From an uncultured virus (IMG/VR IMGVR_UViG_3300033141_005858) (Duplodnaviria; Heunggongvirae; Uroviricota; Caudoviricetes): DNA of 64,000 nucleotides. The translations under genes and the position numbers were made by a program. The notes under the pieces were generated by a model. The model had not been told where the DNA came from, did no database searches, and saw only the letters and a program-made list of their open reading frames with translations. The stretch lies in IMG/VR virus record IMGVR_UViG_3300033141_005858. One strand, 5' to 3'. Shown piece by piece: positions 7,782-54,922 of the stretch (position 1 is the stretch's first letter; the number at the start of each line of letters is the position of its first letter).

Positions 7782-8014
7782 TATAATACCTCCTTTATAA
7801 AGTCTAATGCCTTTTCATAAGCCCAAACAAGCAACATACTTATATCGTCATATGACAACGCATCGTATTTTTCCACCTCTTCATCAAGTATCAACCTATG
7901 AACAATATATCTTGACGCTTCATTTATAGCCTGAAGGAACCCATCAAGATCTCCCTTTATCCGCTCTTCTAAATCCTTTTTTGCCTCCTCAATCAAATCT
8001 TGCTTCTTCCTCAT
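7781..8014 (-). CDS. Hypothetical protein
   Basis: Translationally coupled ORF. Confidence 0.7.
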   Translation of the reverse strand: MRKKQDLIEEAKKDLEERIKGDLDGFLQAINEASRYIVHRLILDEEVEKYDALSYDDISMLLVWAYEKALDFIKEVL

Positions 8015-8016
8015 CT

Positions 8017-8325
8017 TTATTTCTCCTTTAAACTTAAATGAACCATAGAAACCAAATATCTCTTTTCTCCTGCCAATCGACCAGTTACAAAATTCCCCAG
8101 TACTCGGCTCCTTCGAACTTCCTTTACCTTAAATTCAGATACTGTCCCATCAGTATGAGAAAAATTAACTATTAAACCCGGATGTAGTTTTCCTTTTAAG
8201 TTAAAAACTGCTTCCATTTTAAGCTGATCATATCTAGCCTTACAAGCATCACTAACCTTTACAATCTCATCAAAAGACTGAAGAAACATAACTTTATCCA
8301 TCAAATCTTGCAAATTATCACTCAT
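8017..8325 (-). CDS. Hypothetical protein
   Basis: AGGAGG RBS. Confidence 0.7.
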   Translation of the reverse strand: MSDNLQDLMDKVMFLQSFDEIVKVSDACKARYDQLKMEAVFNLKGKLHPGLIVNFSHTDGTVSEFKVKEVRRSRVLGNFVTGRLAGEKRYLVSMVHLSLKEK

Positions 8326-8505
8326 CCGCTGCCTCCTTAACTAGTTTAACTAAATCCTTAATACTCTCGTCAAACCCCGACTGCATACAGTCCATTAGTT
8401 CAGGATGAATATTCGTATTTTTTGACCTTAATATTATCCTGGACAAAACCGTAAGCTCCTGAAGATTTTCATACAACTCTTGTGTTACCTTCACAGTAAC
8501 CTCCT

Positions 8506-8805
8506 TTAAAATAATTTATAAAAAACCCAATCCATACCACGCTCTTCTGCAAACTTAATATCATCTTTCAACCTCTCTAGAACCCAATCCACCCCATCCT
8601 CACCTGAAAATGTTTCAAGATACGTAACCAGACCTCTTAAATCCTCTACACTCAACTCTGTAAAACCACAACCATCATAATTTAAAGATTCATAAAAATT
8701 GGTATTCTCCTCCAACCACCTCATCACAATCTCATGATGCCAAGCATTAAAACTAGGAGAATCCTTTAAAACTATTTTATTTACCCTGTAAACTCTTACA
8801 CTCAT
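8506..8805 (-). CDS. Hypothetical protein
   Basis: Coupled ORF with RBS. Confidence 0.7.
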   Translation of the reverse strand: MSVRVYRVNKIVLKDSPSFNAWHHEIVMRWLEENTNFYESLNYDGCGFTELSVEDLRGLVTYLETFSGEDGVDWVLERLKDDIKFAEERGMDWVFYKLF

Positions 8806-9230
8806 TATTTCCTCCTTTCAAATAAATCATTAATTTCCTCATAAACCCGGTCATAAACAAGTTTTCTAATATCTATTAAATGCAAAACACTATCCGAATG
8901 AACCTCTCCAGATCCAGGAACTCCTAACCGCTCAGCCAACCACAACACTATCTCTTCTACATCCCGCTCAACATCCTCTATAAAACTGCTCACTTCCTCC
9001 TTTACACCCAAATAAGCCCTCACCATAGCAAGTAACCACATAATTGTTTTATGAACTGCCATACTAACAGAATCATGTAGCTCTAAATATAAAACATCAT
9101 TCTTACCTTCTTTTTTTATTGTACCCAACTCAATTGAAGAGCCGCCTGAACAACACTCAATAGTAAAAGTCTCATCATACCGCTCTCTTACCTTTAAACC
9201 ATTCTTCTCTAAAATATATGTTCCTTCCAT
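8805..9230 (-). CDS. Hypothetical protein
   Basis: Start moved to MEGTY at 9230 after GAGGAGG. Confidence 0.65.
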   Translation of the reverse strand: MEGTYILEKNGLKVRERYDETFTIECCSGGSSIELGTIKKEGKNDVLYLELHDSVSMAVHKTIMWLLAMVRAYLGVKEEVSSFIEDVERDVEEIVLWLAERLGVPGSGEVHSDSVLHLIDIRKLVYDRVYEEINDLFERRK

Positions 9231-9231
9231 A

Positions 9232-9423
9232 TCATCCTCCTCTATAATATATTTCTTTAGCATATAAAATAGCCTCATCTGGAAAATCAGAGAATCCCTC
9301 CATCTTCTTCGGAAATAATTCTTCTAAACCATCTTTAAGCAACAAAACAACTTCTTCATCAATCTCATCTACACGCTCTCTTACCATCGCCCTTATTTCT
9401 TGTTCTTCTTTTTTTGTTAACAT
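9232..9423 (-). CDS. Hypothetical protein
   Basis: ORF with RBS. Confidence 0.65.
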   Translation of the reverse strand: MLTKKEEQEIRAMVRERVDEIDEEVVLLLKDGLEELFPKKMEGFSDFPDEAILYAKEIYYRGG

Positions 9424-9436
9424 AATAATATCCCCC

Positions 9437-9685
9437 CTAATCCAACGGATCTAATGGAGTTAGTTCTTCCAAAAGCTCATTTAACTCCTTACCATCCAAG
9501 TTACCTTCAAAAAAATCTAACCAGATACGAAAACCTTCGGCTACTTCCTGAACCTGATCTCCATCCATCGGATCTTCTGAATTTTTATTCCTCCAAAACA
9601 AATCAAAAATAAATGCCAAAGATTCAATCAAATCCTCATAATCATTACCAAGACCCGTCTTTTTTGACATTTTTTCTAAAGCCAT
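9437..9685 (-). CDS. Acidic hypothetical protein
   Basis: Translationally coupled ORF. Confidence 0.65.
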   Translation of the reverse strand: MALEKMSKKTGLGNDYEDLIESLAFIFDLFWRNKNSEDPMDGDQVQEVAEGFRIWLDFFEGNLDGKELNELLEELTPLDPLD

Positions 9686-10101: not shown

Positions 10102-10707
10102 TCAATCCTCAAAATGTTTTAATTCTTCAATAGCATAATCAATTCCATAAACCCCGCCAACAACATCATAATCAAGTGGAATTTTATCCTTATCATATTT
10201 CTCCAATACCATCAGGTACACATCTCCGCTCAAATATTGATTCCAACTCTCTACCAAACCCTTCGCTAATCTTAAAGCCTTCTCCTCAGAATCAGCCTCC
10301 CTTTTATCAACAAGAACAACTCCAACATGGCTTGTATCCCAACCTTGTGGATCTGACATAAAGCTTCTACTTAAACTCAACCACACCCCGCTATGCACTA
10401 AACAAGACAACTCAAATACAAAATACTTATTCTCCAAACCTTCTGTATCCTCTCCTCGGTAAAAACTTATTACCTGTTCCTTTGTAACTAAATCCGGTCT
10501 CTCTACATAGAAATCCCTATGATAATTAACTAAAAATACCATATCATCTCCCCAATCATCCGGATTTTCTGCATCCTCATCATAAACAAGATAACGTGCC
10601 TCAAAACCATTCTTAACCTTTTTAATCGTTAAAGTATCCTCGATAGGCTTAAATAGAAACTCAAACCCATCATCACTAACATAAGTAATTTTTTTGCTAA
10701 TTTTCAT
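10102..10707 (-). CDS. Conserved phage hypothetical protein
   Basis: HSGVWLS...WDTSHVG...WNQYLSGDVY...GGVYG motifs; start moved to MKISKK. Confidence 0.75.
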   Translation of the reverse strand: MKISKKITYVSDDGFEFLFKPIEDTLTIKKVKNGFEARYLVYDEDAENPDDWGDDMVFLVNYHRDFYVERPDLVTKEQVISFYRGEDTEGLENKYFVFELSCLVHSGVWLSLSRSFMSDPQGWDTSHVGVVLVDKREADSEEKALRLAKGLVESWNQYLSGDVYLMVLEKYDKDKIPLDYDVVGGVYGIDYAIEELKHFED

Positions 10708-11632
10708 CCTTTTCTCCTTTTGTTTTAAGAGCAGCAACCTCAAGGTACTTTAATACTTCCCTCTTAGCCTGCTCTCTTGTAAGTTTCCTTATAACCTTTA
10801 ACCTCTTCACCCGAAACTTCCCATCAGAAGCAAAAGGAATGGCTACAATATCCTTAACACAAAATTCTACCTCAATGAATTCGAATTCATTCGCCAAAGC
10901 ACCGTCAATATCCTCAAAACACCACTGTAAAGTAGCAACATTAAAACCTTCTGCACAACTCAACCGCTCATCTGCTGAATAGTCTTTTACAGCATACGCC
11001 TTCCCTACCTCATAATGAAAATCAAAATACGGAGACTTCCCATCAACTAAATACTTCCATGCTCTCAACCTTGTCTCCGGCGGCTGCATCTTTAGAATAT
11101 ATAAACCAGGAAATGCCCAGGAAACCTCACCAAACTCCCAGTATCCAATCCTTGCTTTATCAAGAAAAGCACCACAGAGATTCACACCACAAAGATTCGC
11201 ATTCCTAAGATCTGCATAAGCAAGATTCGTATACCGAAGATTTGCACCTTCCAAACTCGCACCATAAAGATCTGCATGCTCAAGAACTGCATCCCTAAAA
11301 CTAACCTTTCTAAAATCTACATCCCTAAGGTTTGCATAATTAAGATCCGCACTACTAAAATCCGCACCTCCAAATTCTGCACACCTAAGATCTGCATACC
11401 TAAGATTCGCATACCTAAAATTCGCACCCCAAAAATCTGCATACCTAAGATCCGCATCCCCAAGACATGCATACCTAAGATCCGCCTCTCTGAGACTTGC
11501 ATACCTAAGATCCGCATGTTCAAGATCTGCATCCCTAAGATCCGCATACTCTAACTCTAACCTTTTACCACCCTTCTCCTTTAACCACAAACCATGGTCA
11601 TGAAGAAGTTCTTTTAATTTTTTTTCATCCAT
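10697..11632 (-). CDS. Pentapeptide repeat protein with a C-terminal phage domain
   Basis: Roughly 25 A[DN]L[RE]x-type pentapeptides after an H..WL...G.R cap; C-terminal YEVGK...C..G.....KFRV domain. Confidence 0.9.
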   Translation of the reverse strand: MDEKKLKELLHDHGLWLKEKGGKRLELEYADLRDADLEHADLRYASLREADLRYACLGDADLRYADFWGANFRYANLRYADLRCAEFGGADFSSADLNYANLRDVDFRKVSFRDAVLEHADLYGASLEGANLRYTNLAYADLRNANLCGVNLCGAFLDKARIGYWEFGEVSWAFPGLYILKMQPPETRLRAWKYLVDGKSPYFDFHYEVGKAYAVKDYSADERLSCAEGFNVATLQWCFEDIDGALANEFEFIEVEFCVKDIVAIPFASDGKFRVKRLKVIRKLTREQAKREVLKYLEVAALKTKGEKDEN

Positions 11633-12655: not shown

Positions 12656-13213
12656 TTAACTTTCCAACTTTAATAATTCAATCCCATAATCTATTATTTT
12701 AACAATACTTCCTTTGTCTTTAACAACATCAGCAGAATTTCGAGCAGTACCAGTAACACTCTTAACAATGATAGCTTCAATATCAGATTCAACAACCTCA
12801 GCAGCCCAAGCAGTAATCCAAGCAACAATCCCAGGAATCCCAACAGTGACATCCCCAACAGCCAAAGCAGCGACTTTAGCAGTTCTAGCAATGGCTCTAT
12901 TTTTTTCCGTTGGGCTGTTTATCCAGTTTTTTGTTGCCTGTATTGCCTGCCTAGGACGTTTATCATTAGGATATTTCCTCTCAAACATAGGCAATACTAA
13001 TTCTGCACAATATACAGCAAGCCTCGCCCTGTTCTCTCTTGTTTTGAGAAGCCTTGGTATAGCCCAGAACAACCAATCATCCGTATCCTCAATGTTAGAC
13101 TTACGAAGCCTATTAATAAGCTTGAACACATCTTTCGTGTCTTGTTCTTTAATCCATCTTATGGAGTCTTTGCAGGGTTTCCATTTCTCAATCCATGCTT
13201 TTGTTATTTTCAT
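12656..13213 (-). CDS. Imm5-like helical phage protein
   Basis: RLAVYCAELVLPMFE..YPNDKRPRQAI motif. Confidence 0.65.
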   Translation of the reverse strand: MKITKAWIEKWKPCKDSIRWIKEQDTKDVFKLINRLRKSNIEDTDDWLFWAIPRLLKTRENRARLAVYCAELVLPMFERKYPNDKRPRQAIQATKNWINSPTEKNRAIARTAKVAALAVGDVTVGIPGIVAWITAWAAEVVESDIEAIIVKSVTGTARNSADVVKDKGSIVKIIDYGIELLKLES

Positions 13214-23048: not shown

Positions 23049-24659
23049 CTAAGCTGTATATTTCAGCCAAACGTCCCCATCAGAGCCTCCACTAGGATCG
23101 CTTGTACTAATGGTTATTTTCCTATGTCTATCAGATGCGTAATTCACTAATGAATTATGGTCAACTGTATCTGAGCCTCCTGACTGATGACTGCTTGCGT
23201 GAGCCTTAGGAGTCCTCGTTGCTGACTTATCATCAAGCTCCGCATCGCTTATCTTGGAGTTCAGATTTGCCAATGTATCTGCATTATGCTTGTCTCCACC
23301 AAGGTCGTGAGCAATAGGAGTCCTTGGCTCCGACTTATCATCAAGCTCCGCATCGCTTATCTTGGAGTTCAGATTTGCCAATGTATCTGCATTATGCTTG
23401 TCTCCACCAAGGTCATGAGCCGGTATTCCGCCGGTTGCCTCTGCTATCCACCTGCTTGTACTCTCGTCCCAGGATAATACATCATTGTCATTTGGCGTTT
23501 CTGCGTTCACGTCCACCAAATCGCTGAGCTTTGGGGGGAAAGTCGTAGGGAACAATTCCTTATACGCCGACGCAACAGTTAATAGATTTGCTCCAGATTT
23601 TTGAACTACGATTTTTGCAGCCAGGATTCCAAATTCACTGACTAATTCCGGGACAGTGTCAGGAAGCACTGCGTTTTCAGCCTCAGCCAGTTTATAATTT
23701 CCCTGCCCATAAACCACATTTATGTCGCTATCAAAATGGACATAGACCCAGTGGACCCCATAGCGGTTTGTTGTAAGTGTCGCAAGAGCCCCAGAACCAT
23801 CATCATAATGGATATTGTCGATTTGTTGCTGACCTGTGACTTTTGTCCAACCACCCCCACCGTCTCTATACCAGCAGGTAAACCTATCTGCCCCAGACGT
23901 ATCCTGTGCCGAAGTCTCTATCTTATTAAGCCCGAAATAGAAAACGCCGGCACCAGAGGTCAGGTATCTCTGTCCGGTCTCTGATATTTCCCCGCCAGAA
24001 GCACGCTCGAACCCTCTGACGTTTATCAGCCTTTCGTGTTCGTTGTATGCTAGTTCAGTTAACCTAATCCCATAACTTAGGATATGAAGTGTCGTCCCTT
24101 CTCTATAGACTTTACCCAGGATAAATTCTGTCCGCCCATCAAGCGTAGTTCTATCGATCGTCACTCCTATAACGGGGGAACCACCATTATAATTCATATA
24201 AACATAATTTATCTTACTGTCAGTTAAGGCTATTCCCGTATCAGCGTCCCAATCAAACGATTTTGTCAGCCCTGTAGGTGAGTCAGTCGTTTTTATAAAC
24301 CCAGTCCCTGCTGCCACGTCTATTGTCCCGTTATGTGCTGCGTTCTCTGTTATCTCCCCGCCAGAGATACGCCCAGCAGATTGTATGATATTCAGCCAAT
24401 CTTGGAGATCATCATAAGTCGGTGTTGTTCCTATGCTTTCTATTGAAATGTCATCAGCACTTATATTAAACAAACTATTACTCAATTCACCAAAACGATT
24501 AGTTAAAACCGGCTTTAATTTATCTTCCACCCCACGAGATCTTCGTATAAAATCCTTTTTTAAGAAGAAAAAGTTCTCTCCTCTATGTGCCAAATTAGCA
24601 GGCTGTGAGGCATGTTTATTGAACTTCTCAAAATCTGCAAATTTCTGTTTCTTAGCCAT
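23049..24659 (-). CDS. Tail fibre protein
   Basis: LSDLVDVN...VLSWD....W motif, AHASSH..GGSD motif, PSGGSDGDVW end, internal duplication. Confidence 0.8.
   Translation of the reverse strand: MAKKQKFADFEKFNKHASQPANLAHRGENFFFLKKDFIRRSRGVEDKLKPVLTNRFGELSNSLFNISADDISIESIGTTPTYDDLQDWLNIIQSAGRISGGEITENAAHNGTIDVAAGTGFIKTTDSPTGLTKSFDWDADTGIALTDSKINYVYMNYNGGSPVIGVTIDRTTLDGRTEFILGKVYREGTTLHILSYGIRLTELAYNEHERLINVRGFERASGGEISETGQRYLTSGAGVFYFGLNKIETSAQDTSGADRFTCWYRDGGGGWTKVTGQQQIDNIHYDDGSGALATLTTNRYGVHWVYVHFDSDINVVYGQGNYKLAEAENAVLPDTVPELVSEFGILAAKIVVQKSGANLLTVASAYKELFPTTFPPKLSDLVDVNAETPNDNDVLSWDESTSRWIAEATGGIPAHDLGGDKHNADTLANLNSKISDAELDDKSEPRTPIAHDLGGDKHNADTLANLNSKISDAELDDKSATRTPKAHASSHQSGGSDTVDHNSLVNYASDRHRKITISTSDPSGGSDGDVWLKYTA
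23224..23420. repeat. 89-bp tandem duplication (108-nt period) in the tail fibre gene
   Basis: 23224-23312 vs 23332-23420, 1 mismatch; encodes AHDLGGDKHNADTLANLNSKISDAELDDKS twice. Confidence 0.95.
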
Positions 24660-24669
24660 CTAAAATCTC

Positions 24670-26070
24670 CTAAACCATACAAACCCCACCTTTCTTTATT
24701 TGGCTATTATCTCGCAAAGATAACTTACCTAAATCAGCTAAAATATCCAAAGCCACACTTACTTCTATCCTAGTCAAGCGACAATAATTTGGCATCACTA
24801 GCTTTCGACTACCCATCAACTTGGCATAAGTAGCATTACAACCCTTCATACAAAATTGCCGAGCCATACAATCATCACAATCAAACCCTTCTCTAACATC
24901 TCCTCTTACCTGACGCCTTTCTAAAGACCGAGTCTTAAATAATGTAAATTCATCCCAACCATTCCAAACATCCCCCATCGCCCATTTATCTGGATTATTG
25001 TAACTACCATAACGTTGGCATGCATATAACTTCCCTCTCCAATCAATAGAAGCACTATTCCAAGCAACCCCACACATTCTACCTTCCGGAGGATTAGGGC
25101 TCCTCAATTGACTTAAAACAGTATTAAGGAATTTAAGATTAATATTTACACCACTTCTCTGAGCATATTTATAATACTCTCCTAGCTTCTCTAAAAGATG
25201 CCGGTAATCCATTAATTGTTTCTCCGACCAATCAGTTTCAAAATCTGGCTCTATTGCAATTGACTTAAAACCTTTATTCCTTAAAAACCTAAAATCATCA
25301 AACCAATCACCTACAGTTTCCGGAGTTATTGTAGGTCGGATCTCAATATTAGGAAACCTAGACAAAATCTCATCTACTGGAATATCATCAAAAGAACCTT
25401 TACCATCTTTATAAATTCGATTCAAATCATGCGTCTCTTTTCTCCCGTCAATACTCAAAAGAAAAGGATTCCTTGAATTAAAATTCTTCTCTATCCAATC
25501 CAGACGCTCTGTATTTAATAAAGTACCATTCGTGGTCATCCCCCAACCCACACTCACTCCGTTCTTTTTAGCTAATTGATTTCCAATATTAACGATATCC
25601 TCCAATTGACTCCATCTTGTAGTTGGCTCTCCCCCAAAAAAATGACACTTTATATTTTTATGGGGTTGAATTTCAAATAACCACTTCAACATTTGATGCA
25701 TCGTTTCTTTAGACATATTCCCAGGGTTGGTTGTAGCATAACAATACCTGCAAGCTAAATTACATCCACTAGTATGATGAATAAAATACACCATCGGCAT
25801 CCCCCCGCCGCTCTTCTTTTGACCCGCTGTCACATCGCTACCAACTCCCTGTTGGCAAGTATAACAATTCCTACAAAGTTCCATTAAAGTTTTTTTCTTT
25901 TTTTCAATACCCTTCTGCCTCATATCATTTACAGTCACACCCCCATCAACTCCCTGTTGACAAGTATAACAATTCCTACACAAACTTTCTTTATTATCTT
26001 TCTTATTGTCTCCTCCATAACTAACTTCACAAGTATAACAATTTTTACATATTTCCTTCTTTTTATCCAT
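24670..26070 (-). CDS. Radical SAM/SPASM peptide/protein maturase with N-terminal CxxCxxC repeats
   Basis: CNLACRYC, FFGGEP, TTNGTLL and LSIDG motifs; SPASM CG...G.LYAC and CxxCx5Cx3C...C. Start moved to the ATG at 26070 after AGGAG. Confidence 0.93.
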   Translation of the reverse strand: MDKKKEICKNCYTCEVSYGGDNKKDNKESLCRNCYTCQQGVDGGVTVNDMRQKGIEKKKKTLMELCRNCYTCQQGVGSDVTAGQKKSGGGMPMVYFIHHTSGCNLACRYCYATTNPGNMSKETMHQMLKWLFEIQPHKNIKCHFFGGEPTTRWSQLEDIVNIGNQLAKKNGVSVGWGMTTNGTLLNTERLDWIEKNFNSRNPFLLSIDGRKETHDLNRIYKDGKGSFDDIPVDEILSRFPNIEIRPTITPETVGDWFDDFRFLRNKGFKSIAIEPDFETDWSEKQLMDYRHLLEKLGEYYKYAQRSGVNINLKFLNTVLSQLRSPNPPEGRMCGVAWNSASIDWRGKLYACQRYGSYNNPDKWAMGDVWNGWDEFTLFKTRSLERRQVRGDVREGFDCDDCMARQFCMKGCNATYAKLMGSRKLVMPNYCRLTRIEVSVALDILADLGKLSLRDNSQIKKGGVCMV

Positions 26071-26081
26071 TACACTCTCCT

Positions 26082-26861
26082 TTATATTCCCTGCACTGTA
26101 ACACACACCTGACAGGTAGATACACAAGATTCACATGTATCACAAAACTGGCATGTATCACACGAATAACAACTTACATTCAACTGACACGTATTACACT
26201 TTTCACATGAATCACATAGATTACAATTTACCTGATTCTGGCAAGTATTACAAACATCACACGCTGCACAATCCTGTGCTGTGTTACACACCTCGCATGT
26301 ATTACATTTTACACAACTCACTGCACTCTCACAAGTATCACATACATCACAAGTAGCACAATCCTGTGTTGTGTTACATATTTGACAAGCATCACACATA
26401 TCACACACTTCACAATCCTGTGCTGTGTTACATACCTGGCAGGTATCACATTTTGCACAGCTTACCTGGCTCTCACAGGAATCACATATATCACACACTG
26501 CACAATCCTGTGCCGAAACACACACATCACAAGTATCACACACTTGACAAGCATTACATACCTGGCATGTATTACAAGTTTGGCAACCACCCTGATCTGT
26601 ATTACAAGTTTCACATGAATCACATAGCTCACAAGAATCACAAAAATAACAACCACTCTCCGCAGTATTGCACACCTCACACGTATCACATAATTCACAA
26701 GTCTGGCAACCCGCCACATTTGTTTCACAAGTATCACACACCTGACAAGTTTCGCACGAAACCACTCCCTGCTGGCAAACATCACACACCTCACAAGCAG
26801 AACATTCCGCCGTATTACACAACTGACAAGTATTACATAATTCGCAAGCTCCGCAAGCCAT
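26082..26861 (-). CDS. Cys-every-third-residue (Cxx)n repeat protein, putative rSAM substrate or tail component
   Basis: 70 Cys in 259 aa (manual count); lies directly upstream of the rSAM gene. Confidence 0.85.
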   Translation of the reverse strand: MACGACELCNTCQLCNTAECSACEVCDVCQQGVVSCETCQVCDTCETNVAGCQTCELCDTCEVCNTAESGCYFCDSCELCDSCETCNTDQGGCQTCNTCQVCNACQVCDTCDVCVSAQDCAVCDICDSCESQVSCAKCDTCQVCNTAQDCEVCDMCDACQICNTTQDCATCDVCDTCESAVSCVKCNTCEVCNTAQDCAACDVCNTCQNQVNCNLCDSCEKCNTCQLNVSCYSCDTCQFCDTCESCVSTCQVCVTVQGI

Positions 26862-26889
26862 TTTAAATTCCTTTATTCATTATAATATC

Positions 26890-29628
26890 CTAAAAAACAG
26901 AAGTCACGCAAAGCTGGCAAAGATTGCAATTTTGACATTCATAACAATTCTCACAAGCATCACACACATCACACAATGCACAATCCTGTGTTGTGTTACA
27001 TATTTGACAAGCATCACACACATCACACACTTCACAATCCTGTGCTGTGTTACATACCTGGCAGGTATCACATTTTGCACAGCTTACCTGGCTCTCACAG
27101 GAATCACACACATCACACACTTCACAATCCTGTGCTGTGTTACATACCTGGCAGGTATCACATTTTGCACAGCTTACCTGGCTCTCACAGGAATCACATA
27201 CCTGACAGGTATCACATTTTTGACAACTTACTTGGGATTCACAACTATCACACACATCACACACTGCACAATCCTGTGCTGTGTTACATACCTGGCAGGT
27301 ATCACATTTTTGACAACTTACTTGAGATTCACAACTATCACACACATCACAAGTATTGCACGCCTGGCATCCATAACAATTTTGACAGGTTCCACATGAA
27401 CTCACATTTACTTCACAAGCATTACATGCCTGGCACGTATTACACAACTGACAAGTTGAACAAGTACCAACGGTAGTTTGACATGTATTACAAGTCTGAC
27501 AAGAATTACATAGCTGGCAACCACCCTGATCTGTATTGCATAACTGGCAACTGTCACACACCGCACAACCACCCTGTGCAGATACACAGGTTTCACATTC
27601 ATAACAAACATCACAAGATTGTTCCTCTACATTACAAACCTGACAAGAATAACAAACATAACAAAAAACTTCACCCAGCGTTTGTAAATCATCCATAACC
27701 ACAAAATTAGTCTTCTCGTTTTTTGTATCTTTAACGACTTCTCGGATTCTAAAAACATCTCCATCTAAACTCCCACCAGCAACTCCTGCCCTCTCCCTAT
27801 TTAATTTCAATTTCCTTGTAGGAAATAAACCAAAACCTTTAACCCCACAAGAAGATTCTATTATAGTTAAAGGCTTAGAACACATACTAAGAATACCACC
27901 AGCCACAGATTCAGCATCTGCTGAATTTTTTAAATATGTTTCAAAAGGTAATGTATCCCTAACCTTATACTTATATAAAACAGAATAATTAACCTTCTCC
28001 ACTTCCTTAAATTCTAAAGTCTTCGGATCTTGATCATATAAAATTCTAACCTTATCCCGCACATAAGATTCATCCTGTTTCACGTCAAACTTCTTACCAT
28101 AATCTCCGTCTTTCAATTCCAAAGTACCTTCCGGTACCGTAGGCTCATAAGCCTCAAAAGATAATTTACCATTTTCAGTTGGAGCAAAAAAAGCCACAAT
28201 ACTCCGACCAATGGTTTGTAAAACTTCTCTTGAACCAACTTCAGTATCTAAATAAATAGCTAATTCATACGTTCTTAAACTCTCTGTAGCAGAAAAAGAA
28301 TCCAAATCCAAATCATCATCTAAAAAACCAAGTACATTTTTCAAAATATCCAAAGCAATTTCAGAACCATGAATCAAAAGACTTCCATCACCTGCTTCAA
28401 AGCCCTCTCCATCAATCAATAACTCGTCTCCCCCATTAACATCTATTTCTTTATGTAGAGTTAATTCAGCGTTAGCTAAATCTAAAGTATAATCAGTACC
28501 CGAAGATAATACAGTTCCATTTAAACGAACAGCACTCACCGAATGCACTTTCCGGCTCGCCCACTTCCACTTAGTGTCTCCCCCTACAATATATACTATA
28601 TCGGAATCGGAATAATTTCCAATAAGCTCACAACCAGCATCTACACACAATTGAAAAATACCATGACCAGAAGAGTTCGACCAGCTTGTATAATAATATC
28701 TATGAAAAGGTTTCCCTTTAATACCCACAATTCCAGAAGATGGAACCGCAGCATCAATTTCTTCCTGAACCTCTATTGTAGTATCCCCTTCATTATTAAC
28801 CCCAGAAACCGCAGAAGTGTATTCCCAAGGCATCTGAATACAAGTCGGAACTATATTCTCCTTTTTCCCATAAAATAAAGGAATTGGTCTACCTTCTGCA
28901 TTAGGATCTAACCTAGGATAATTAGAAGTCCAATAATGATCAATAGGAAGTGTTGCAAAAGTACCCACTCTTATATCCTTAACACTAGGAACAACCTCCT
29001 CATCAGAAACATAAGCATCAGACCAACGACCCACAAAAAATGCTTGGTACTCTGAAGAAGGAAGAGAAAGACTTCCAACCTCAATAACAACTCTAGCATT
29101 ATACCAGATATAATCAACAATCGCAGTATCCCACCACCCATTATTTTCCATACTAAAAGATCCAAAATTAAACTTATAAAAACCTTCAATTATATCATCA
29201 ACTGAAAGCTTCAATAAAGGAAAAGAATCTTGACGAACTATTGGCATACAAGGAATTCCATCAATCTCCAATACACTTGTTGCAAAAAACTTCCAACATT
29301 TTACAATAATAACCACATCAGTAGATGAATTACTAAGGTCATCATTATCGGTTGCATGTACATAAATAATTTGATTATAAAAATCAAAATACCAACTCCC
29401 AGCATTAGCCTTAACATCCCCAACAGATGTTTTTTCAGTCAACTCAACCCCATCATCCAAAACCGCATTCACTTTTTGCTCTTCACAAGTATGTGAATAT
29501 GTATTACTACCCTCAGAAACCCAACCACTACCAGTATCCATAAAAATACCCGGATTCACTTTTACCACATACTCTAAATCAGGATTAGGCAACCGAGAAA
29601 GTTTTTTCCAAGTATCCACACCACTCAT
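26890..29628 (-). CDS. Tail hub/tip protein fused to a C-terminal (Cxx)n repeat domain
   Basis: Position after Dit and TMP; GRPIPLFYG hub-like motif; last ~257 aa (26893-27663) are Cxx repeats. Confidence 0.85.
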   Translation of the reverse strand: MSGVDTWKKLSRLPNPDLEYVVKVNPGIFMDTGSGWVSEGSNTYSHTCEEQKVNAVLDDGVELTEKTSVGDVKANAGSWYFDFYNQIIYVHATDNDDLSNSSTDVVIIVKCWKFFATSVLEIDGIPCMPIVRQDSFPLLKLSVDDIIEGFYKFNFGSFSMENNGWWDTAIVDYIWYNARVVIEVGSLSLPSSEYQAFFVGRWSDAYVSDEEVVPSVKDIRVGTFATLPIDHYWTSNYPRLDPNAEGRPIPLFYGKKENIVPTCIQMPWEYTSAVSGVNNEGDTTIEVQEEIDAAVPSSGIVGIKGKPFHRYYYTSWSNSSGHGIFQLCVDAGCELIGNYSDSDIVYIVGGDTKWKWASRKVHSVSAVRLNGTVLSSGTDYTLDLANAELTLHKEIDVNGGDELLIDGEGFEAGDGSLLIHGSEIALDILKNVLGFLDDDLDLDSFSATESLRTYELAIYLDTEVGSREVLQTIGRSIVAFFAPTENGKLSFEAYEPTVPEGTLELKDGDYGKKFDVKQDESYVRDKVRILYDQDPKTLEFKEVEKVNYSVLYKYKVRDTLPFETYLKNSADAESVAGGILSMCSKPLTIIESSCGVKGFGLFPTRKLKLNRERAGVAGGSLDGDVFRIREVVKDTKNEKTNFVVMDDLQTLGEVFCYVCYSCQVCNVEEQSCDVCYECETCVSAQGGCAVCDSCQLCNTDQGGCQLCNSCQTCNTCQTTVGTCSTCQLCNTCQACNACEVNVSSCGTCQNCYGCQACNTCDVCDSCESQVSCQKCDTCQVCNTAQDCAVCDVCDSCESQVSCQKCDTCQVCDSCESQVSCAKCDTCQVCNTAQDCEVCDVCDSCESQVSCAKCDTCQVCNTAQDCEVCDVCDACQICNTTQDCALCDVCDACENCYECQNCNLCQLCVTSVF
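27013..27198. repeat. 90-nt tandem repeat within the Cxx domain, also shared with the neighbouring gene
   Basis: 27013-27108 repeats exactly at +90; 26356-26486 matches 26978-27108 with 1 mismatch. Confidence 0.9.
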
Positions 29629-49243: not shown

Positions 49244-50344
49244 CTACCATCCCTTTGTCAAGGTTTCAATAACATCTTTTTTACTAATCCGATTATTTTC
49301 CTTTGATTTAACCAATAAACCTAAAGAATCAATAATTTCAAAAAATAAAAGCCGCACAGCCGCCTCAGCTCCCAAGATACGAACCTTCTGCACAAATTGA
49401 TAACAACATTTCAACATTTTTACATAAACTGAACTTTCGCCTTCTCCTGTTTTCAAGGATTTTCTCAATAAATCCCCCAGAGTAGCTATAAAACCATCCA
49501 TAAACATCTCTAAATTCGGCTGTAATTTAGAAAACTGCTTAAATAAATTTAGAGCCTTATCATAATCCCCACTCTTTAACTCCTTAACAATCCTGGAAAA
49601 AACAAATATATCTCCATAATTTTCTACAATTAAACCTTTTGTTATTTTCCCAACCCCCAATACCGAAAGCTGTTCCAACATAACAATAGCCTCTCGAAGA
49701 TTACGACCACTTAAAAAATAAACTTGATTAATAACCCCATCTTCAAATTCAATATTTTCTTTTTTTAAAATACCTTCTAAAAATACCTTTACTTTAGACC
49801 ACTCTAATGATTTAAAAGAAAACTCTAACAAACGACTTTTTATTGTCTCTTTTACTTTATAAGCCTCAGTAGTCACTAAAATAAAAAATACTTTTTCCGG
49901 AGGATCTTCTAAAAGTTTTAAAAGAATATCAAAAGACCTTTGAGAGAGAGCATGGCATTCATCTAAAATAACTACCTGATAATTCAAAAAAGTATGATAA
50001 GATAATTGTCCTCTTAATTCTCTCACCTGGTCAGCCTTACCAAAAAAAGCCGAATCTATTTCTATAATACCACCGGTTCCTTTAATAATACTCTTGCAAA
50101 CATCACAAACTCCACAGGGCTCATCCCCAATTCTATTAGGACAATTCAAAGTAGCCGCAATCACCCTAGCCATAGTGGTTTTACCTACTCCGCTTTTCCC
50201 CCCAAACAGGGCTCCAGATGGAAGCGCCTTCCCCTCTCTAAAATAACTGCTTAATAAAATCCTAAAATACTTCACTACATGCTGCTGCCCAAGAACCTCA
50301 GAAAGCTTACGAGGACGGTATTTAATGCTCCACATTTTACTCAT
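49244..50344 (-). CDS. dnaX: DNA polymerase III gamma/tau-like clamp loader subunit
   Basis: KYRP..L.EVLGQ.HV, GVGKTT.AR, LNC...PCGVC..C, ILDECH and LLK.LE.PP motifs. Confidence 0.93.
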   Translation of the reverse strand: MSKMWSIKYRPRKLSEVLGQQHVVKYFRILLSSYFREGKALPSGALFGGKSGVGKTTMARVIAATLNCPNRIGDEPCGVCDVCKSIIKGTGGIIEIDSAFFGKADQVRELRGQLSYHTFLNYQVVILDECHALSQRSFDILLKLLEDPPEKVFFILVTTEAYKVKETIKSRLLEFSFKSLEWSKVKVFLEGILKKENIEFEDGVINQVYFLSGRNLREAIVMLEQLSVLGVGKITKGLIVENYGDIFVFSRIVKELKSGDYDKALNLFKQFSKLQPNLEMFMDGFIATLGDLLRKSLKTGEGESSVYVKMLKCCYQFVQKVRILGAEAAVRLLFFEIIDSLGLLVKSKENNRISKKDVIETLTKGW

Positions 50345-52836
50345 GGCAACAATTCCATTTTATTATGTTCATCTAAATAAAAAGCCTTTTCTTTGTTTAC
50401 AACAAACTTCATAACCCGCCTTTTAGAAATGCCTTTCATCAACGCAATTAAAACCGAACGAATCTGCAACTCTGTATCAAACATCTCAATAAAAAATTCT
50501 CCTTCTCTATTTCCCGTCAAAAACATCCGCAGAATTTTAGGTTTTGCATCAACCTTTCGCGCACGTGTACCAGAAAAATATCGGGTTTTATGTTGTATTA
50601 CCATCAGCTCATCCATAAACCTAAACCCATCAATATAATTAGAATATAAATCATCATTTGATAAATAAGTTTGAATCCTATATAAACCAATTAAATTTTT
50701 CCAAATAACCCTACTATACGGAAAAAAGGATACCAACTTTATACCAAAAAGATGCTCATTAATCCTCCCAAGTTTCTCCATACTAAAATTAATATTTTTC
50801 CTCAAACCCACAGAAAAATAATCTACACCAGAAAACCAATTCCCATTATCCCTATCTGCAACAAACCGAACTTTATTAGTCGCTAAAGGAACCTCTGCCA
50901 ACCAAAAAGCACGATGAATCTGGGCTTTCCAATGAGAATTAGAAACTGTATTAAATTTATCTTCAATATGAAATTTAACCATAATTAAACTCTGAGCAAT
51001 AGACTCTCCTGCTTTTTGCACTTGAGATAAATCATAATCATCCAACTTTGGTCTAATCTTTAATAACGACATCTTTTGATTTTTATGCTTAATATATAAA
51101 TTTTTCAATGCCTTTTTCGAAACCCCTCTATCAACACAATCCCAAAGAAAAACTTCATCTAAACTCCGCTCTCTCATAAAATGCTCCCACTTAGCCCCCC
51201 GCTGTTTCATATTCTCCTCAAGATTTTTCTTTGTATCCTTCCCCAATGAAACATAAAAAGGACGATCTAACTTTAAAGCCGTATCAACGAAAGCTTCGGC
51301 AAAACGAGTATCCCCCATATGAAGTCCCTGGACAGTCCACAAAAAATTCTCTTCACTCTTCCCACCACCTCCACGAGGATAATCTATCCCTAAAGCATCT
51401 AAATGCTTATCTACTTCTTTCCAAGGTTGCTTCTCGTCTATTGTAGGTTTTTTATACTGTAAAGGAGTAGCCGGCTCTACAAAAAGAGGAGTCCATGAAG
51501 CCTTTATTTTTATTTTAGACTTCTTATACTCTTTATAATCCACGATCCGCTTCAATAAAGCGAAAAACTCTTCGTAATCATCCCAAGTTTCTCCTAAATT
51601 AGAAATCATAAAAAATTTAATCCTTTTAAATTTACCACTATCTATCGCAATTCGACAAGCCTTCTCTATATCTTCTTCTGTAATCCCCTTCCCCAACTGA
51701 ACACGAATCCTTTGTGAAACCCCCTCAACTCCAAGAGCTAATTGATTCATCCCACGCTCAGCTAATAAATCATCAAAATAAGAATCTTCAATAAAAGCAT
51801 CCATTCTCATTGATAAAGGATCAATAAAATCATTCGTCTTACTAAGACGAACTAATAATTCTTTTTTATTTGTATAATAAGCAAACTCAGCCGCAATCGG
51901 ACAAACTCCTTTATAGCTACCACCAAATTTCTTATTTGTATTTAAAGCCCGAACAGCTTCCTCCACACCCCGTTCTCTATAAGGACGGTATTTCCAACCA
52001 AGCCCACAAAACAAACAGGCTCCACGACAACCTCTAGATATTTCTGCCTCTCCTAAACCCATTGTAGCATCAGTATAAGAAGGAATCGGTTTGAGTAAAG
52101 GCTCTTCTTCATTCAAATCCTTACAAACAATCCGCCTAAACTTTGTCCGCAAACCAGAAACAAAAGGTTTCCATTTTATAAACTTTTCATCTCTATAAAC
52201 TGGTTTATAACATTTTGGAACAAAAATATAATCAAATTCTTTTTGCAAACGATACAAGCTTTTATTATACTCTTCAAATTTATCAAGCAAAGGAAACAAA
52301 CCAGCCTCAGCCTCTCCAAAATAAATAAGATCTACCACAGGATAAGCCGGAGCAAAATTACCAAACATCGCACTCCCACCAATCATAAAAACAGGATCTT
52401 TTCTATTTCGATCTTTTCGAAAAGGTGAAACCCCACTCATTCGAAGCATTAACGGAAAATTCCACCAGGGCATCACAAAGCTCAAAGAAGTCATCACAAT
52501 ATCATATTCCCCTAAACTATGCTTTGTTTCCAAACCAAATATCGGAATTTTATATTTTCTAAAAAACCGATATTCTCTTTCTGCATTCGGAAAAAAGGCT
52601 CGGTCACAAATAATATTATCTTTTTTATTTAACATTTGATACAACAATGGAACCGTTTGATTCCCTCTAACATCTTCATATCGAACAGGAATAGCCAACA
52701 GAATTTTCAGCCCTGCTTCTTCCCAGATTTTACCATGCGTATTTGGTTCTTTACCTAAATAGACTTCTGGTCTTTCCAAATCAACCTTATGCCTTTCTAA
52801 AAACTCTTCTATTTCTTCAGGACTTCTTAATAACAT
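50341..52836 (-). CDS. B12-binding-type radical SAM protein (TIGR03960-like) with DUF2344-like C-terminus
   Basis: ERP..YLG.E.N start, EISRGCRGACLFC and RPYRER motifs; C-terminal segment resembles the radical SAM-linked domain. Confidence 0.8.
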   Translation of the reverse strand: MLLRSPEEIEEFLERHKVDLERPEVYLGKEPNTHGKIWEEAGLKILLAIPVRYEDVRGNQTVPLLYQMLNKKDNIICDRAFFPNAEREYRFFRKYKIPIFGLETKHSLGEYDIVMTSLSFVMPWWNFPLMLRMSGVSPFRKDRNRKDPVFMIGGSAMFGNFAPAYPVVDLIYFGEAEAGLFPLLDKFEEYNKSLYRLQKEFDYIFVPKCYKPVYRDEKFIKWKPFVSGLRTKFRRIVCKDLNEEEPLLKPIPSYTDATMGLGEAEISRGCRGACLFCGLGWKYRPYRERGVEEAVRALNTNKKFGGSYKGVCPIAAEFAYYTNKKELLVRLSKTNDFIDPLSMRMDAFIEDSYFDDLLAERGMNQLALGVEGVSQRIRVQLGKGITEEDIEKACRIAIDSGKFKRIKFFMISNLGETWDDYEEFFALLKRIVDYKEYKKSKIKIKASWTPLFVEPATPLQYKKPTIDEKQPWKEVDKHLDALGIDYPRGGGGKSEENFLWTVQGLHMGDTRFAEAFVDTALKLDRPFYVSLGKDTKKNLEENMKQRGAKWEHFMRERSLDEVFLWDCVDRGVSKKALKNLYIKHKNQKMSLLKIRPKLDDYDLSQVQKAGESIAQSLIMVKFHIEDKFNTVSNSHWKAQIHRAFWLAEVPLATNKVRFVADRDNGNWFSGVDYFSVGLRKNINFSMEKLGRINEHLFGIKLVSFFPYSRVIWKNLIGLYRIQTYLSNDDLYSNYIDGFRFMDELMVIQHKTRYFSGTRARKVDAKPKILRMFLTGNREGEFFIEMFDTELQIRSVLIALMKGISKRRVMKFVVNKEKAFYLDEHNKMELLP

Positions 52837-53374
52837 TAGCCAAAACCCTCATAGAATCAAGAAATTTATCTAAATTAGCTTTTCGATTATAACAAACAGC
52901 AGCCGGATGAATAGAAACCACGACTTTAAACCCACCACTATGCTTAAAAACATTACCGTTATATTCGGAAACCTTATTTATTCCACATAAAAAATAATTA
53001 GGCTGGGCTCCTAAGATTAAGACCACCTTAGGCTTAACAAGTTCAAACTCCTTCCTCAAAAAAAGATTAAAACAAGTCTTAGCCTCCTCTTTTCTTAAAT
53101 TCCTATTGTCTTTCGTTTTACACTTACACAGATTTGTAATAAATACTTCAGATCGCCGGATACCCACATATTCAAGACCCGCATCTAACACATGACCAGC
53201 CTGCCCAACAAAAGGTCTCCCTAATCTATCCTCTACGTCTCCGGGGTTCCTACCCACAATCATTAAATCACTACCAGACTCCCTGCCCTCAAAAGGAACC
53301 GGATTTAAACATTCCTTACGTGCAGAACAAGCTTTACACTGTAATATAGAATTAATCAAATTTTCTCGACTCAT
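52817..53374 (-). CDS. Uracil-DNA glycosylase family 4-like protein
   Basis: CxxC Fe-S ligands, PG..ED..GRPFVG.AG, FITN..KC...NR and HPAA motifs. Confidence 0.88.
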   Translation of the reverse strand: MSRENLINSILQCKACSARKECLNPVPFEGRESGSDLMIVGRNPGDVEDRLGRPFVGQAGHVLDAGLEYVGIRRSEVFITNLCKCKTKDNRNLRKEEAKTCFNLFLRKEFELVKPKVVLILGAQPNYFLCGINKVSEYNGNVFKHSGGFKVVVSIHPAAVCYNRKANLDKFLDSMRVLANVIKKS

Positions 53375-53715: not shown

Positions 53716-54297
53716 TTACTTATCCATTTTATCAAATTTTCTAGGTAAGATTTTACTACTTGTTCTATTTTCTGGCTCCGCATGATAACAAGCCCGCTTC
53801 CCATCTCCACTCTCATAAACTTTCATAGGATAAGAAAACCCACAATCTTCCATCATCTCCCGAACACATTGATCTGTAGGCACCCACCAATTAGAAAAAT
53901 TATTATCATAATGATTCCCACCACAATATTCCGCAAACGAACCAGGAGACTTTAAAACTTCCGTTTCTAAAAATATCTTCTTCCTTGTTTTATTTTTAAG
54001 CCGTATTAATAAATCAATAGGACTTTCTATATGATAAAGAACTCCCGCACATAAAACATAATCAAAATCCCGCAACTCCAAGAACTTAGGAGACATTACA
54101 TCTAACTGAAAAAAATGAAACTGAGAATGCTTAATAAGAAACGGAGACTTTACTATATCGATACCTACCGCAAACACAGCTCCTCTACGAATCGCTTCGC
54201 CACACATATCACCACTCCAGCACCCTATATCTAAAAAAGTTTCGTTAGAAAGCGTTTCTGGCATTCTATATACTTCCCATCTTTGTTTGGCATTCAT
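53716..54297 (-). CDS. Class I SAM-dependent methyltransferase (CmoB/DUF1698-like)
   Basis: LDIGCWSG, FDYVLC.GVLYH and NWWVP motifs; start moved to MNAKQ. Confidence 0.85.
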   Translation of the reverse strand: MNAKQRWEVYRMPETLSNETFLDIGCWSGDMCGEAIRRGAVFAVGIDIVKSPFLIKHSQFHFFQLDVMSPKFLELRDFDYVLCAGVLYHIESPIDLLIRLKNKTRKKIFLETEVLKSPGSFAEYCGGNHYDNNFSNWWVPTDQCVREMMEDCGFSYPMKVYESGDGKRACYHAEPENRTSSKILPRKFDKMDK

Positions 54298-54298
54298 A

Positions 54299-54922
54299 TC
54301 ATTTCTCCTTTTTAACAATAGTTTTATGCTCCTTCTGTTCAAATTTATATAAAACATCAGCATAGCTCCCAAAATCTTCACAATGGGCTAACAAGACAAT
54401 CTGAATCTTCAATTTTTCAGAAAGCTCTTTTAACAATTTAGACATCCTTCGTTTATATAAATCAGACAAATGAAGCAAACCAGCATCTAATACAAGTAAA
54501 TTCGAGATCTCATCTTTTTTATAAACCAAGAAAAAAAGATGCAATAAAATACTAACCACCTCAACTAAACCCCCTCCCCTAGCCTCAGCCACCTTTGTCC
54601 TCAAACCACTTGTATCAATTCTAAAATCAATTCTTAAATCTTTTCCTTCATAATTAGAAATTGTTTCAAATTTATAACCTTCTCCAAACACAGAAAATAA
54701 ACCATAAGTAATAAAATCCTCTAACTGCTTCAGCAAATCCTCCTGCTGTAACCCACCAAGACTCTTAAACAACTCAGCCACCTGAACAAGAATACCAAGC
54801 TCTTCTCGCTTCTCATTTATAGTAAGCCTTAATTTTGTTTCCTCCTTTTTAGAAAAAGCAAGCTCCGCCTTTTGCCTATTAACAACTTCAATTAAATTAT
54901 CTATTCTTTTTTGTGTATTCAT
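54299..54922 (-). CDS. SbcC/Rad50 C-terminal half (ABC signature, Walker B, H-loop)
   Basis: Coiled coil, RGGG signature, LVLDAG Walker B variant, LLAH. Confidence 0.8.
   Translation of the reverse strand: MNTQKRIDNLIEVVNRQKAELAFSKKEETKLRLTINEKREELGILVQVAELFKSLGGLQQEDLLKQLEDFITYGLFSVFGEGYKFETISNYEGKDLRIDFRIDTSGLRTKVAEARGGGLVEVVSILLHLFFLVYKKDEISNLLVLDAGLLHLSDLYKRRMSKLLKELSEKLKIQIVLLAHCEDFGSYADVLYKFEQKEHKTIVKKEK

Follow-up and report, generated by a model that had tools for sequence, protein, structure and literature searches.

Gene content of the locus

The 64,000-nucleotide stretch of the uncultured virus IMGVR_UViG_3300033141_005858 (Caudoviricetes), which in its full length we call the window, is a phage genome with all genes on the minus strand. 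It encodes a terminase, a portal, a major head protein, a tape measure protein of 1741 amino acids (aa) and tail fibre proteins, together with replication genes of bacterial type (DnaB, DnaG zinc ribbon, RecA and clamp loader). The tape measure gene is followed, in this order, by genes for a 371-aa protein, a 912-aa protein with a Cys-rich C-terminus, a 259-aa protein built from Cys triplets, a radical S-adenosylmethionine (SAM) enzyme and a tail fibre protein (Table 1). Because tape measure and tail fibre genes flank it, we place this cassette in the tail module. Judging from sequence and gene context, this phage probably cross-links its tail fibre with sulfur bridges arranged as a ladder.

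Table 1. Features of the cassette, of its neighbours and of two related loci; positions are those of the window unless a locus (L) is named
Feature	Position	Strand	Basis or remark
Stand-alone Cys-triplet protein (C-a-x)n, 259 aa, putative substrate	26082..26861	-	open reading frame translation
Tail protein, 912 aa: N-terminal domain of ~650 aa and C-terminal Cys module	26890..29628	-	gene order
C-terminal Cys-triplet module, residues 653-912, 70 Cys	26890..27672	-	starts after conserved DDLQTLG junction
Perfect 90-bp (30-aa) tandem duplication in the Cys module	27013..27198	-	period 90, 2.1 copies, 100% matches
Radical SAM/SPASM maturase, 466 aa from ATG at 26070	24670..26070	-	Pfam Radical_SAM, NCBIfam, CteB match
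N-terminal extension of the maturase, ~94 aa, three substrate-like units	25789..26070	-	at the place of the CteB N-terminal domain
CX3CX2C radical SAM cluster motif (C103, C107, C110)	25741..25764	-	invariant in 15/15 aligned enzymes
SPASM region, 7 Cys, including invariant C351-x-R353	24781..25074	-	translation; aligns to CteB SPASM domain
Tape measure protein, 1741 aa	30748..35973	-	PHROG tape measure families, best 1.4e-33
Tail fibre protein, 536 aa, directly downstream of the maturase	23049..24659	-	PHROG tail fiber, 6.6e-11 and 4e-08
Pentapeptide-repeat and Imm5-like genes	10697-11632, 12656-13213	-	family matches
Period-4 repeat proteins	L044:1603-4980; L028:2372-3778, 7987-9498		acceptor-like residue again after next Cys

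A register rule in the Cys-triplet protein and its family

The 259-aa protein has 70 Cys (27% of its residues). Its ATG at 26861 is preceded by AAAGGAA, which resembles a ribosome-binding site, and the protein begins with MAC and runs straight into the repeat. It has no family in Pfam or NCBIfam; length-matched orthologues are found at the same position in nine other loci. AlphaFold2 (AF2), run on a nine-row alignment, returned a mean pLDDT (predicted local distance difference test) of 38.4 and a pTM (predicted template modelling score) of 0.21. This unusable model, without an autonomous fold, would be expected of a domain that takes its shape from modification, but it is no proof. A search of the ESM Atlas by features was negative; the protein's own model had a pLDDT of 0.46 and its structural neighbours were meaningless extended models.

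The sequence-only reading had counted D, E, N or Q (D/E/N/Q) after 52 of the 55 Cys that have another Cys at -3, and after 6 of the 15 that have none. Both counts are exact: the three exceptions to the first are all Val (CDVCVS, CESCVS and CQVCVT), and the nine exceptions to the second are A (four), Y (two), G, S and V (one each). Many block ends were said to keep Q or E at position i+4 even with no Cys at i+3, and 8 of 15 do so (Q in six, E in two; V in six and C in one of the others). Position i+4 over all 70 Cys is D/E/N/Q in 60 (32 of them D or E), Val in nine and Cys in one. As 78 of the 189 non-Cys residues are D/E/N/Q, 22.7 of 55 would be expected by chance; the hypergeometric probability of at least 52 is 3.9e-23, and the maximum in 20,000 shuffles with Cys fixed was 34 of 55. 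The repeat units are, however, paralogous (tandem DNA repeats with periods of 54, 90 and 144 are present), so that counts within the protein are not independent and are inflated by recent repeat duplication. The rule was therefore tested on relatives.

Homologue searches found four proteins of similar length and 37 longer ones, nearly all of the latter being tail-protein homologues of 800-1000 aa with a C-terminal Cys module. The rule holds in the tail module of the window (D/E/N/Q in 50/56 with a Cys at -3, versus 6/14 without) and in the family: pooled over the 41 homologues the counts are 1404/1889 versus 184/523. From 62 domains, 55 were kept after removal of near-duplicates, and these were analysed for the residue class D/E/N/Q/V/Y/F/M/I, below called the class. 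After a Cys with a Cys at -3, 98.8% of residues are in the class and 1.0% are T/A/S/G/P (n=2610). Where the Cys opens a block, the corresponding fractions for the next residue are 48.4% and 49.2% (n=721). At the other edge, four positions past the closing Cys, 94.7% are in the class and 4.8% are T/A/S/G/P (n=605). D/E/N/Q alone reach 76.5% in the first group. The class is thus wider than had been supposed, with V/Y/F/M/I filling about 22% of such positions in the homologues. Hardly any A, S, G, P, K, R or L occurs there.

The contrast becomes sharper when all non-Cys residues of the 55 domains are sorted by the position of the upstream Cys. The class makes up 99% of residues with Cys at -1, -4 and -7 (n=1939) and 99% of those with Cys at -1 and -4 (n=610); with Cys at -4 and -7 and none at -1 it still makes up 96% (n=566). 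The fraction is 49% with Cys at -1 only (n=235), 32% with Cys at -1 and -7 (n=181) and 18% with Cys at -1 and -6 (n=131), while Cys at -1 and -5, that is a Cys spacing of four, again gives 99% (n=114). Thus, the constraint follows the Cys four residues upstream (five if the Cys spacing is four) and not the adjacent Cys. This block-edge analysis (96% without a Cys at -1 versus 18-49%) favours an acceptor at i+4, the geometry that had been suggested for the 259-aa protein.

The edge direction is the same in 49 of 53 proteins. Among 26 aligned conserved columns, 22 hold at least three residue types and 22 hold class residues only; columns vary freely within the class, indicating that the class is kept by selection and is not merely inherited. 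The rule is also not generic to CxxC repeats, since other CxxC-repeat proteins, found among the weak matches of an exhaustive profile search, break it with class fractions down to 0.12.

Three other assignments were considered and rejected. An acceptor at i+1 of the same Cys fails at the block edges, where the residue after the first Cys is T/A/S/G/P in 49%. An acceptor two residues before the next Cys fails there too: four residues after the last Cys, 95% are still in the class. Lanthionine formation to the T/S-rich third position comes without a dehydratase gene, and the third position can also be V, A or L.

The tail protein and its Cys module

The 912-aa gene follows the tape measure and the 371-aa gene, which fits the order expected of Tal/gpJ and suggests a tail-tip role. 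The protein has only weak PHROG matches of unknown function and no match in Pfam, among annotated phages or among PDB chains. A tblastn search of 50,697 phage records found no match for the 259-aa protein, the tail N-terminal domain or the 371-aa protein.

The Cys module of the tail protein and the 259-aa protein share 52% identity. Over 258 residues of the module, counted from position 655, i+4 is in the class for 70/70 Cys (57 D/E/N/Q, 9 V and 4 Y). The perfect 90-bp duplication within the module shows ongoing repeat expansion. The two open frames on the opposite strand, at 26366-26866 (+) and 26932-27476 (+), encode 155-166 aa rich in H, T and Y; these frames are not genes but arise as a by-product of the TGY-rich triplets.

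The tail module and the stand-alone protein of one phage have matched lengths: 260/259 aa here and 303/310, 249/253, 251/247, 240/237, 295/292, 252/276, 154/150, 284/276 and 108/107 aa in other loci. Over these ten within-phage pairs, some of which are related, lengths correlate with r=0.99, and Cys counts match too. Similarity is 0.46 between paralogues within a phage, 0.40 between paralogues from different phages and 0.45 between orthologues. The length matching may result from co-assembly in register, from concerted evolution or from both.

The radical SAM/SPASM enzyme

The mechanical open reading frame of the maturase has a TTG at 26127 as its first codon. The likelier start is the ATG at 26070, which follows an AAGGAG at a distance of 6 nt; this AAGGAG overlaps the stop codon of the 259-aa gene. 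The enzyme matches Radical_SAM (1e-13) and Fer4_12 in Pfam and has both hallmarks of the radical SAM/SPASM superfamily, the CX3CX2C motif and a SPASM region with seven Cys, which reads CX12GX4C ... CDDCMARQFCMKGC ... C in the translation. R353 is invariant, and the residue between C351 and R353 is Q here and H in L021 and L025. For PapB, PMC10739248 describes a model with a carboxylate-binding His-Arg pair (H377/R378).

The best NCBIfam match is PapB (NF047865, an equivalog model; 3.3e-61, 207.3 bits against a cut-off of 340), covering profile positions 10-324 of 330. It is followed by the SCIFF maturase (TIGR03974; 6.3e-41, 140.7 bits, cut-off 425), the nif11 maturase (1.4e-39, 136.1 bits, cut-off 518.7), QhpD (TIGR03906; 1.7e-36, 125.9 bits, cut-off 453), the CXXX-repeat maturase (TIGR04115; 5.4e-30, 105.1 bits, cut-off 350) and, over residues 112-255 only, TIGR04463, the CrpC family (1.3e-17, 63.7 bits, cut-off 525). 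These best-matching families are all thioether-forming or Cys-peptide maturases. The enzyme does not reach the membership cut-offs of PapB, SCIFF, QhpD and TIGR04463; we predict that it works like PapB, SCIFF and QhpD enzymes while standing outside those families.

The closest solved structure is CteB (1.2e-32). The alignment covers CteB residues 100-448 only, which leaves the N-terminal domain of CteB unmatched in the maturase. In its place are three substrate-like units, CKNCYTCEVSY and two copies of CRNCYTCQQGV (pattern C[KR]NCYTC[EQ]xx[VY]), and between one and five such units are present in all 12 orthologues examined. The units obey the substrate rule: the residue after an internal Cys is in the class in 102/102 cases and the fourth residue after the last Cys in 39/41, whereas the residue after the first Cys is in the class in only 23/45 (K or R in 17). 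They also mirror the local substrate style, for example with ...CFTGQ where substrate blocks end in CYTGQ. The maturase thus lacks a leader-binding recognition element (RRE) for RiPPs (ribosomally synthesised and post-translationally modified peptides) and has substrate-like repeats instead; these units may dock it on the repeat or may themselves be modified.

One orthologous maturase (L017:11014-13335) carries an intein within the CX3CX2C motif (CNLRC|H...; Pfam Hint 5.1e-05, LAGLIDADG_3 3.3e-16). Inteins usually sit in indispensable sites.

Linkage of enzyme and repeat

Searches for related loci with the single enzyme sequence gave none, and alignment-based queries gave loci from both sides. 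The tail protein led to 19 viral loci, of which 12 have the order tail-Cys gene, small Cys gene, radical SAM gene. Six of the 19 end at a contig edge before the enzyme position, and the cassette is present in 12/12 loci that extend far enough; the remaining one, L015, lacks both the Cys module and the Cys-type enzyme. Small Cys-triplet proteins were further found on eight contigs of metagenome-assembled genomes (MAGs): in seven the enzyme is adjacent, and the eighth contig is only 2.8 kb long. One MAG cassette follows a tape measure gene.

The enzyme led to 17 viral loci at E<=1e-25 (11 already known contigs and six new ones). Cys-dense genes lie directly upstream of the enzyme in 16 of the 17 (five of the six new), the exception being L041. 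Weaker radical SAM relatives have no Cys-dense gene in 11 of 15 cases. More remote relatives of the enzyme have large proteins beside them whose ends are period-4 (C-[QE]-x-x)n repeats in the style of the 'CXXX repeat' (Table 1).

Contigs of relatives (L021-L028; P0190) are found in both bacterial and archaeal MAG bins, titled Thermoprotei, Thermofilales, Brockarchaeota, Woesearchaeota, Ca. Lithacetigena and Clostridiales; such bins are not a reliable guide to the host. A homologue of the tail N-terminal domain with 52% identity carries the MAG name Promethearchaeota. The window's own replication genes look bacterial.

Exchange of the module

Among 34 homologues of the tail N-terminal domain, 27 have a C-terminal Cys repeat, five have a His/Pro/Asp/Tyr repeat and in two the repeat is absent or truncated. 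The junction at which the modules are swapped is conserved (DD[LF]Q[ST]xG). In L015:7998-15775, a tail-protein homologue with 56% identity ends in an HTPHSHTPH... repeat. Downstream follow a radical SAM/SPASM gene (best matches DynA and cyclophane-forming maturases), a B12-binding radical SAM gene, a 572-aa open reading frame and a His-repeat open reading frame; the radical SAM/SPASM protein carries a substrate-like C-terminal GDKPHGDKPYGD repeat. The His-type tail thus sits with other radical SAM enzymes, and substrate type and enzyme type change together. This suggests that fibre modules and their maturases are exchanged together, as an unrecognised layer of tail diversification.

A model of fused thioether rings

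Three observations can be brought together: the register rule, the family of the enzyme and the linkage of the genes in both directions. We propose, with a probability of roughly 65%, that the enzyme links each Cys by a ranthionine-type thioether to the residue at i+4, giving fused rings. It would have two substrates, the 259-aa protein and, in the 912-aa tail protein, the final 260 residues. A side-chain hydrogen would be abstracted from the residue at i+4 of each Cys (at i+5 when the Cys spacing is four), and the resulting carbon would be joined to the Cys sulfur, forming a ranthionine-type thioether at a non-alpha carbon. Ring n, from Cys i to i+4, would share the dipeptide Cys(i+3)-acceptor(i+4) with ring n+1, because Cys stands at every third residue; with this shared dipeptide, five-residue rings would be fused into a ladder in each block, and a chain could have up to about 70 links. 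The predicted product is a rigid, redox-independent tail fibre made of the tail C-terminus and an equally long stand-alone chain. We infer that the enzyme acts on the two proteins, that it makes thioethers, that these run from i to i+4 and that both proteins belong to the virion.

Two earlier suggestions bear on this model. A PapB-like thioether enzyme had been predicted from the repeat, and the next gene does encode a radical SAM/SPASM protein with PapB as best family, linked to the repeat in both directions. The suggested nested, overlapping rings need to be reworded: overlap follows from the register, but the rings would be fused through a shared dipeptide and not nested. The Cys-X3-Asp/Glu motif of PapB-family substrates is present in the 259-aa protein, within a class that is wider than D/E. 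Each member of the class could give a stabilised side-chain radical, which we propose to be alpha to the carbonyl in D, N, E and Q, benzylic in Y and F, tertiary in V and I and, in M, alpha to the sulfur. For PapB, a radical stabilised by resonance beside the carboxylate has been invoked (PMC10739248).

Several points weigh against this model. Four of the 53 proteins (P0003, P0005, P0027 and P0034) show the opposite edge pattern, and the 55 domains are homologous, so that P-values overstate their independence. The enzyme scores below every curated cut-off, and its chemistry is thus not transferable by equivalog rules. PapB needs a carboxylate or an isostere, with D23H not being cross-linked (PMC10739248), and Asn and Gln do not appear in the main text of that paper; given this need for a carboxylate, N, Q, V, Y, F and M as acceptors rest on CrpC (below) and on inference. 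Fused rings that share two residues are without precedent in radical SAM enzymes and their steric feasibility is hypothetical. The virion location of both Cys proteins is deduced from gene order only. All support consists of sequence statistics and gene context.

Thioethers with another connectivity, whether between chains, at the alpha carbon (sactionine) or at a few sites only, are unlikely but deserve to be taken seriously. Links between chains could join the tail module to the stand-alone protein or connect the subunits of a trimer. The matched lengths and Cys counts in 10/10 pairs (r=0.99) would fit chains that lie in register, among which such links could form. SPASM enzymes do include sactisynthases, although these are weak matches here: sactipeptide maturases score far lower than the best families (RumMC 1.1e-11), and the best-scoring families are of the ranthipeptide type. 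Sites used only in part would have a parallel in CrpA, which according to PMC13692751 is only partly modified in vivo. On the other hand, the i+4 rule depends on a Cys of the same chain at a fixed distance, which is not obviously needed for links between chains, and the restriction to certain side-chain types speaks against attack at the alpha carbon.

Slightly less plausible again is a metal-binding or disulfide-rich domain, in which folding or ligand geometry would cause the i+4 rule and the radical SAM enzyme would do something else. The Cys content of 27% resembles that of metal-binding proteins, and zinc fingers were the sole matches of the Cys repeat in a PDB profile search, although these were marginal and no better than chance (E 0.087 and above). 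The tail-tip protein gpL of phage lambda contains an Fe-S cluster. However, the constrained position admits V, Y, F, M and I beside D/E/N/Q but not S, T, H, K or R, which is not a ligand pattern. Runs of more than 25 uninterrupted CXX units in P0003 leave no fixed four-Cys site, other CxxC-repeat proteins break the rule, and AF2 gives no fold (pLDDT 38.4). Furthermore, enzyme and repeat are linked in both directions and swapped together.

Other radical chemistry on Cys, such as formylglycine formation, a C-C bond or methylation with no thioether, is improbable. Models of the anaerobic sulfatase maturase (6.6e-23) and of cyclophane-forming maturases (1e-16 to 1e-21) do match the enzyme, but 14 or more orders of magnitude more weakly than PapB, SCIFF and QhpD, and this chemistry would leave the partner residue at i+4 unexplained. 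That the 259-aa protein is the precursor of a secreted RiPP-like product (a bacteriocin or signal) and not a part of the virion is hardly credible: a stand-alone gene beside a maturase is the layout of a RiPP cluster and the MAG relatives of the small Cys protein have short leader-like N-termini, but the cassette has no protease or transporter gene and lies between tape measure and tail fibre genes, the 259-aa protein has no leader because its MAC start lies directly in the repeat, and in 27/34 homologues a tail protein of 650 aa carries this repeat as a fusion.

A further-reaching picture can be drawn, which we offer tentatively and at somewhat less than even odds. A lineage of tailed viruses, judging from the bacterial and archaeal MAG bins of related contigs, would build a central tail fibre of two length-matched (Cys-acceptor-x)n chains, stapled by a dedicated RRE-less enzyme with copies of its own substrate motif into about 70 fused five-residue rings per chain. 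This would be the first covalent cross-linking of a virion protein by an enzyme and the densest cross-linked ribosomal polymer known. The fibre module could be exchanged for a His/Tyr-rich repeat with cyclophane-type and B12 radical SAM enzymes, and RiPP chemistry would serve generally as a swappable hardening of phage tails.

Other features of the window

The tail fibre protein downstream of the maturase (23049-24659, minus strand) contains a 30-aa unit, AHDLGGDKHNADTLANLNSKISDAELDDKS, in two near-identical copies. A scan for promoters and terminators found no excess over shuffled background (29 versus 27.6 and 3 versus 4.9, respectively). The plus strand has a GC skew of -0.24 to -0.50 in every 4-kb bin of the window (1-64000; 33-40% GC) and an AT skew of about zero; over the whole length, G thus exceeds C about 2.5-fold on the coding strand.

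A second radical SAM protein of 831 aa (Radical_SAM_N2 and Radical_SAM) is encoded in the replication region at 50341-52836 (-). It adjoins a gene of the uracil-DNA glycosylase family (52817-53374) and a methyltransferase gene (53716-54381) and may be part of a DNA modification module. Two of the early genes match a pentapeptide-repeat family (1.7e-36) and, as a putative immunity protein, Imm5 (1.5e-09).

Comparison with known systems

Radical SAM thioether cross-linking of Cys-rich substrates is already known. New are the virion context, the grammar of a triplet ladder, substrate-like repeats on an enzyme that has no RRE, the pairing of chains of matched length and a module that can be swapped. 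A full-text literature search found no paper that ties radical SAM thioether chemistry to a phage structural protein, and none that joins 'CXXX repeat' and 'radical SAM'; the nearest literature is the 2026 CrpA/CrpC study of a cellular protein. If the model is true, radical chemistry of the RiPP type builds a structural part of a virus and not a small secreted peptide, and enzyme-made thioether cross-links extend to virion proteins, as a redox-independent substitute for disulfides in anoxic habitats. (C-acceptor-x)n would then be a simple, programmable grammar for rigid, ladder-like polycyclic polypeptides, and the predicted leaderless, RRE-free recognition and wide acceptor range of the maturase could be of interest for peptide stapling.

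PapB and its substrate PapA (freyrasin) resemble the phage system in the radical SAM/SPASM enzyme, the Cys-X3-acceptor motif and the presence of several motifs per substrate. PapB makes Cys-X3-Asp/Glu rings, both in-line and nested, and prefers CX3D over CX0D and CX6D (PMC9413430). PapA is a short peptide with six motifs, whereas a 26-kDa protein and a tail domain hold about 70 here, which overlap. The phage system further differs by acceptors that include N, Q, V, Y, F, M and I, by the lack of a leader, by substrate-like repeats at the N-terminus of the enzyme and by its tail-module context.

CrpC of Methanococcus voltae (Dieter et al. 2026) is likewise a SPASM radical SAM enzyme that acts on a protein-sized Cys repeat with the Cys before the acceptor. 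A paralogous second protein in the cluster and low AlphaFold confidence for the repeat are further likenesses. The ranthionine links on the 28.8-kDa CrpA involve the motifs CAGM, CAVD, CAGD and CPLV, in which M, D and V occur (PMC13692751). Unlike the phage system, CrpA has a 17-residue unit, C-X-X-Q/D spacing (i+3) and a 47-residue leader-like N-terminus, its enzyme bears an RRE, and the system is cellular. The words 'phage' and 'viral' are absent from the main text of that paper (PMC13692751).

CteB, the SCIFF maturase (PDB 5WGG, 5WHY), aligns to the phage maturase in its radical SAM and SPASM regions. Its N-terminal ~100 residues are without counterpart and are replaced in the maturase by Cys-motif repeats. 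This N-terminal region of CteB is presumably its RRE. SCIFF has a single Cys-to-Thr link. QhpD, also a radical SAM/SPASM enzyme, modifies a protein subunit, QhpC, with Cys-to-Asp/Glu thioethers, three in number; QhpC is a periplasmic enzyme subunit without a repeat and not part of a virion. The CXXX-repeat system (TIGR04115) shares a Cys-periodic repeat target with Q or E after each Cys, with a period of four where the phage repeat has a period of three; period-4 forms stand beside relatives of the enzyme in L044 and L028. A precedent on the phage side is HK97, the capsid of which is an autocatalytic isopeptide chainmail. In HK97, too, covalent cross-links strengthen a phage structural protein, but in the system described here a dedicated radical SAM enzyme is predicted, and the links would be thioethers in a tail fibre.

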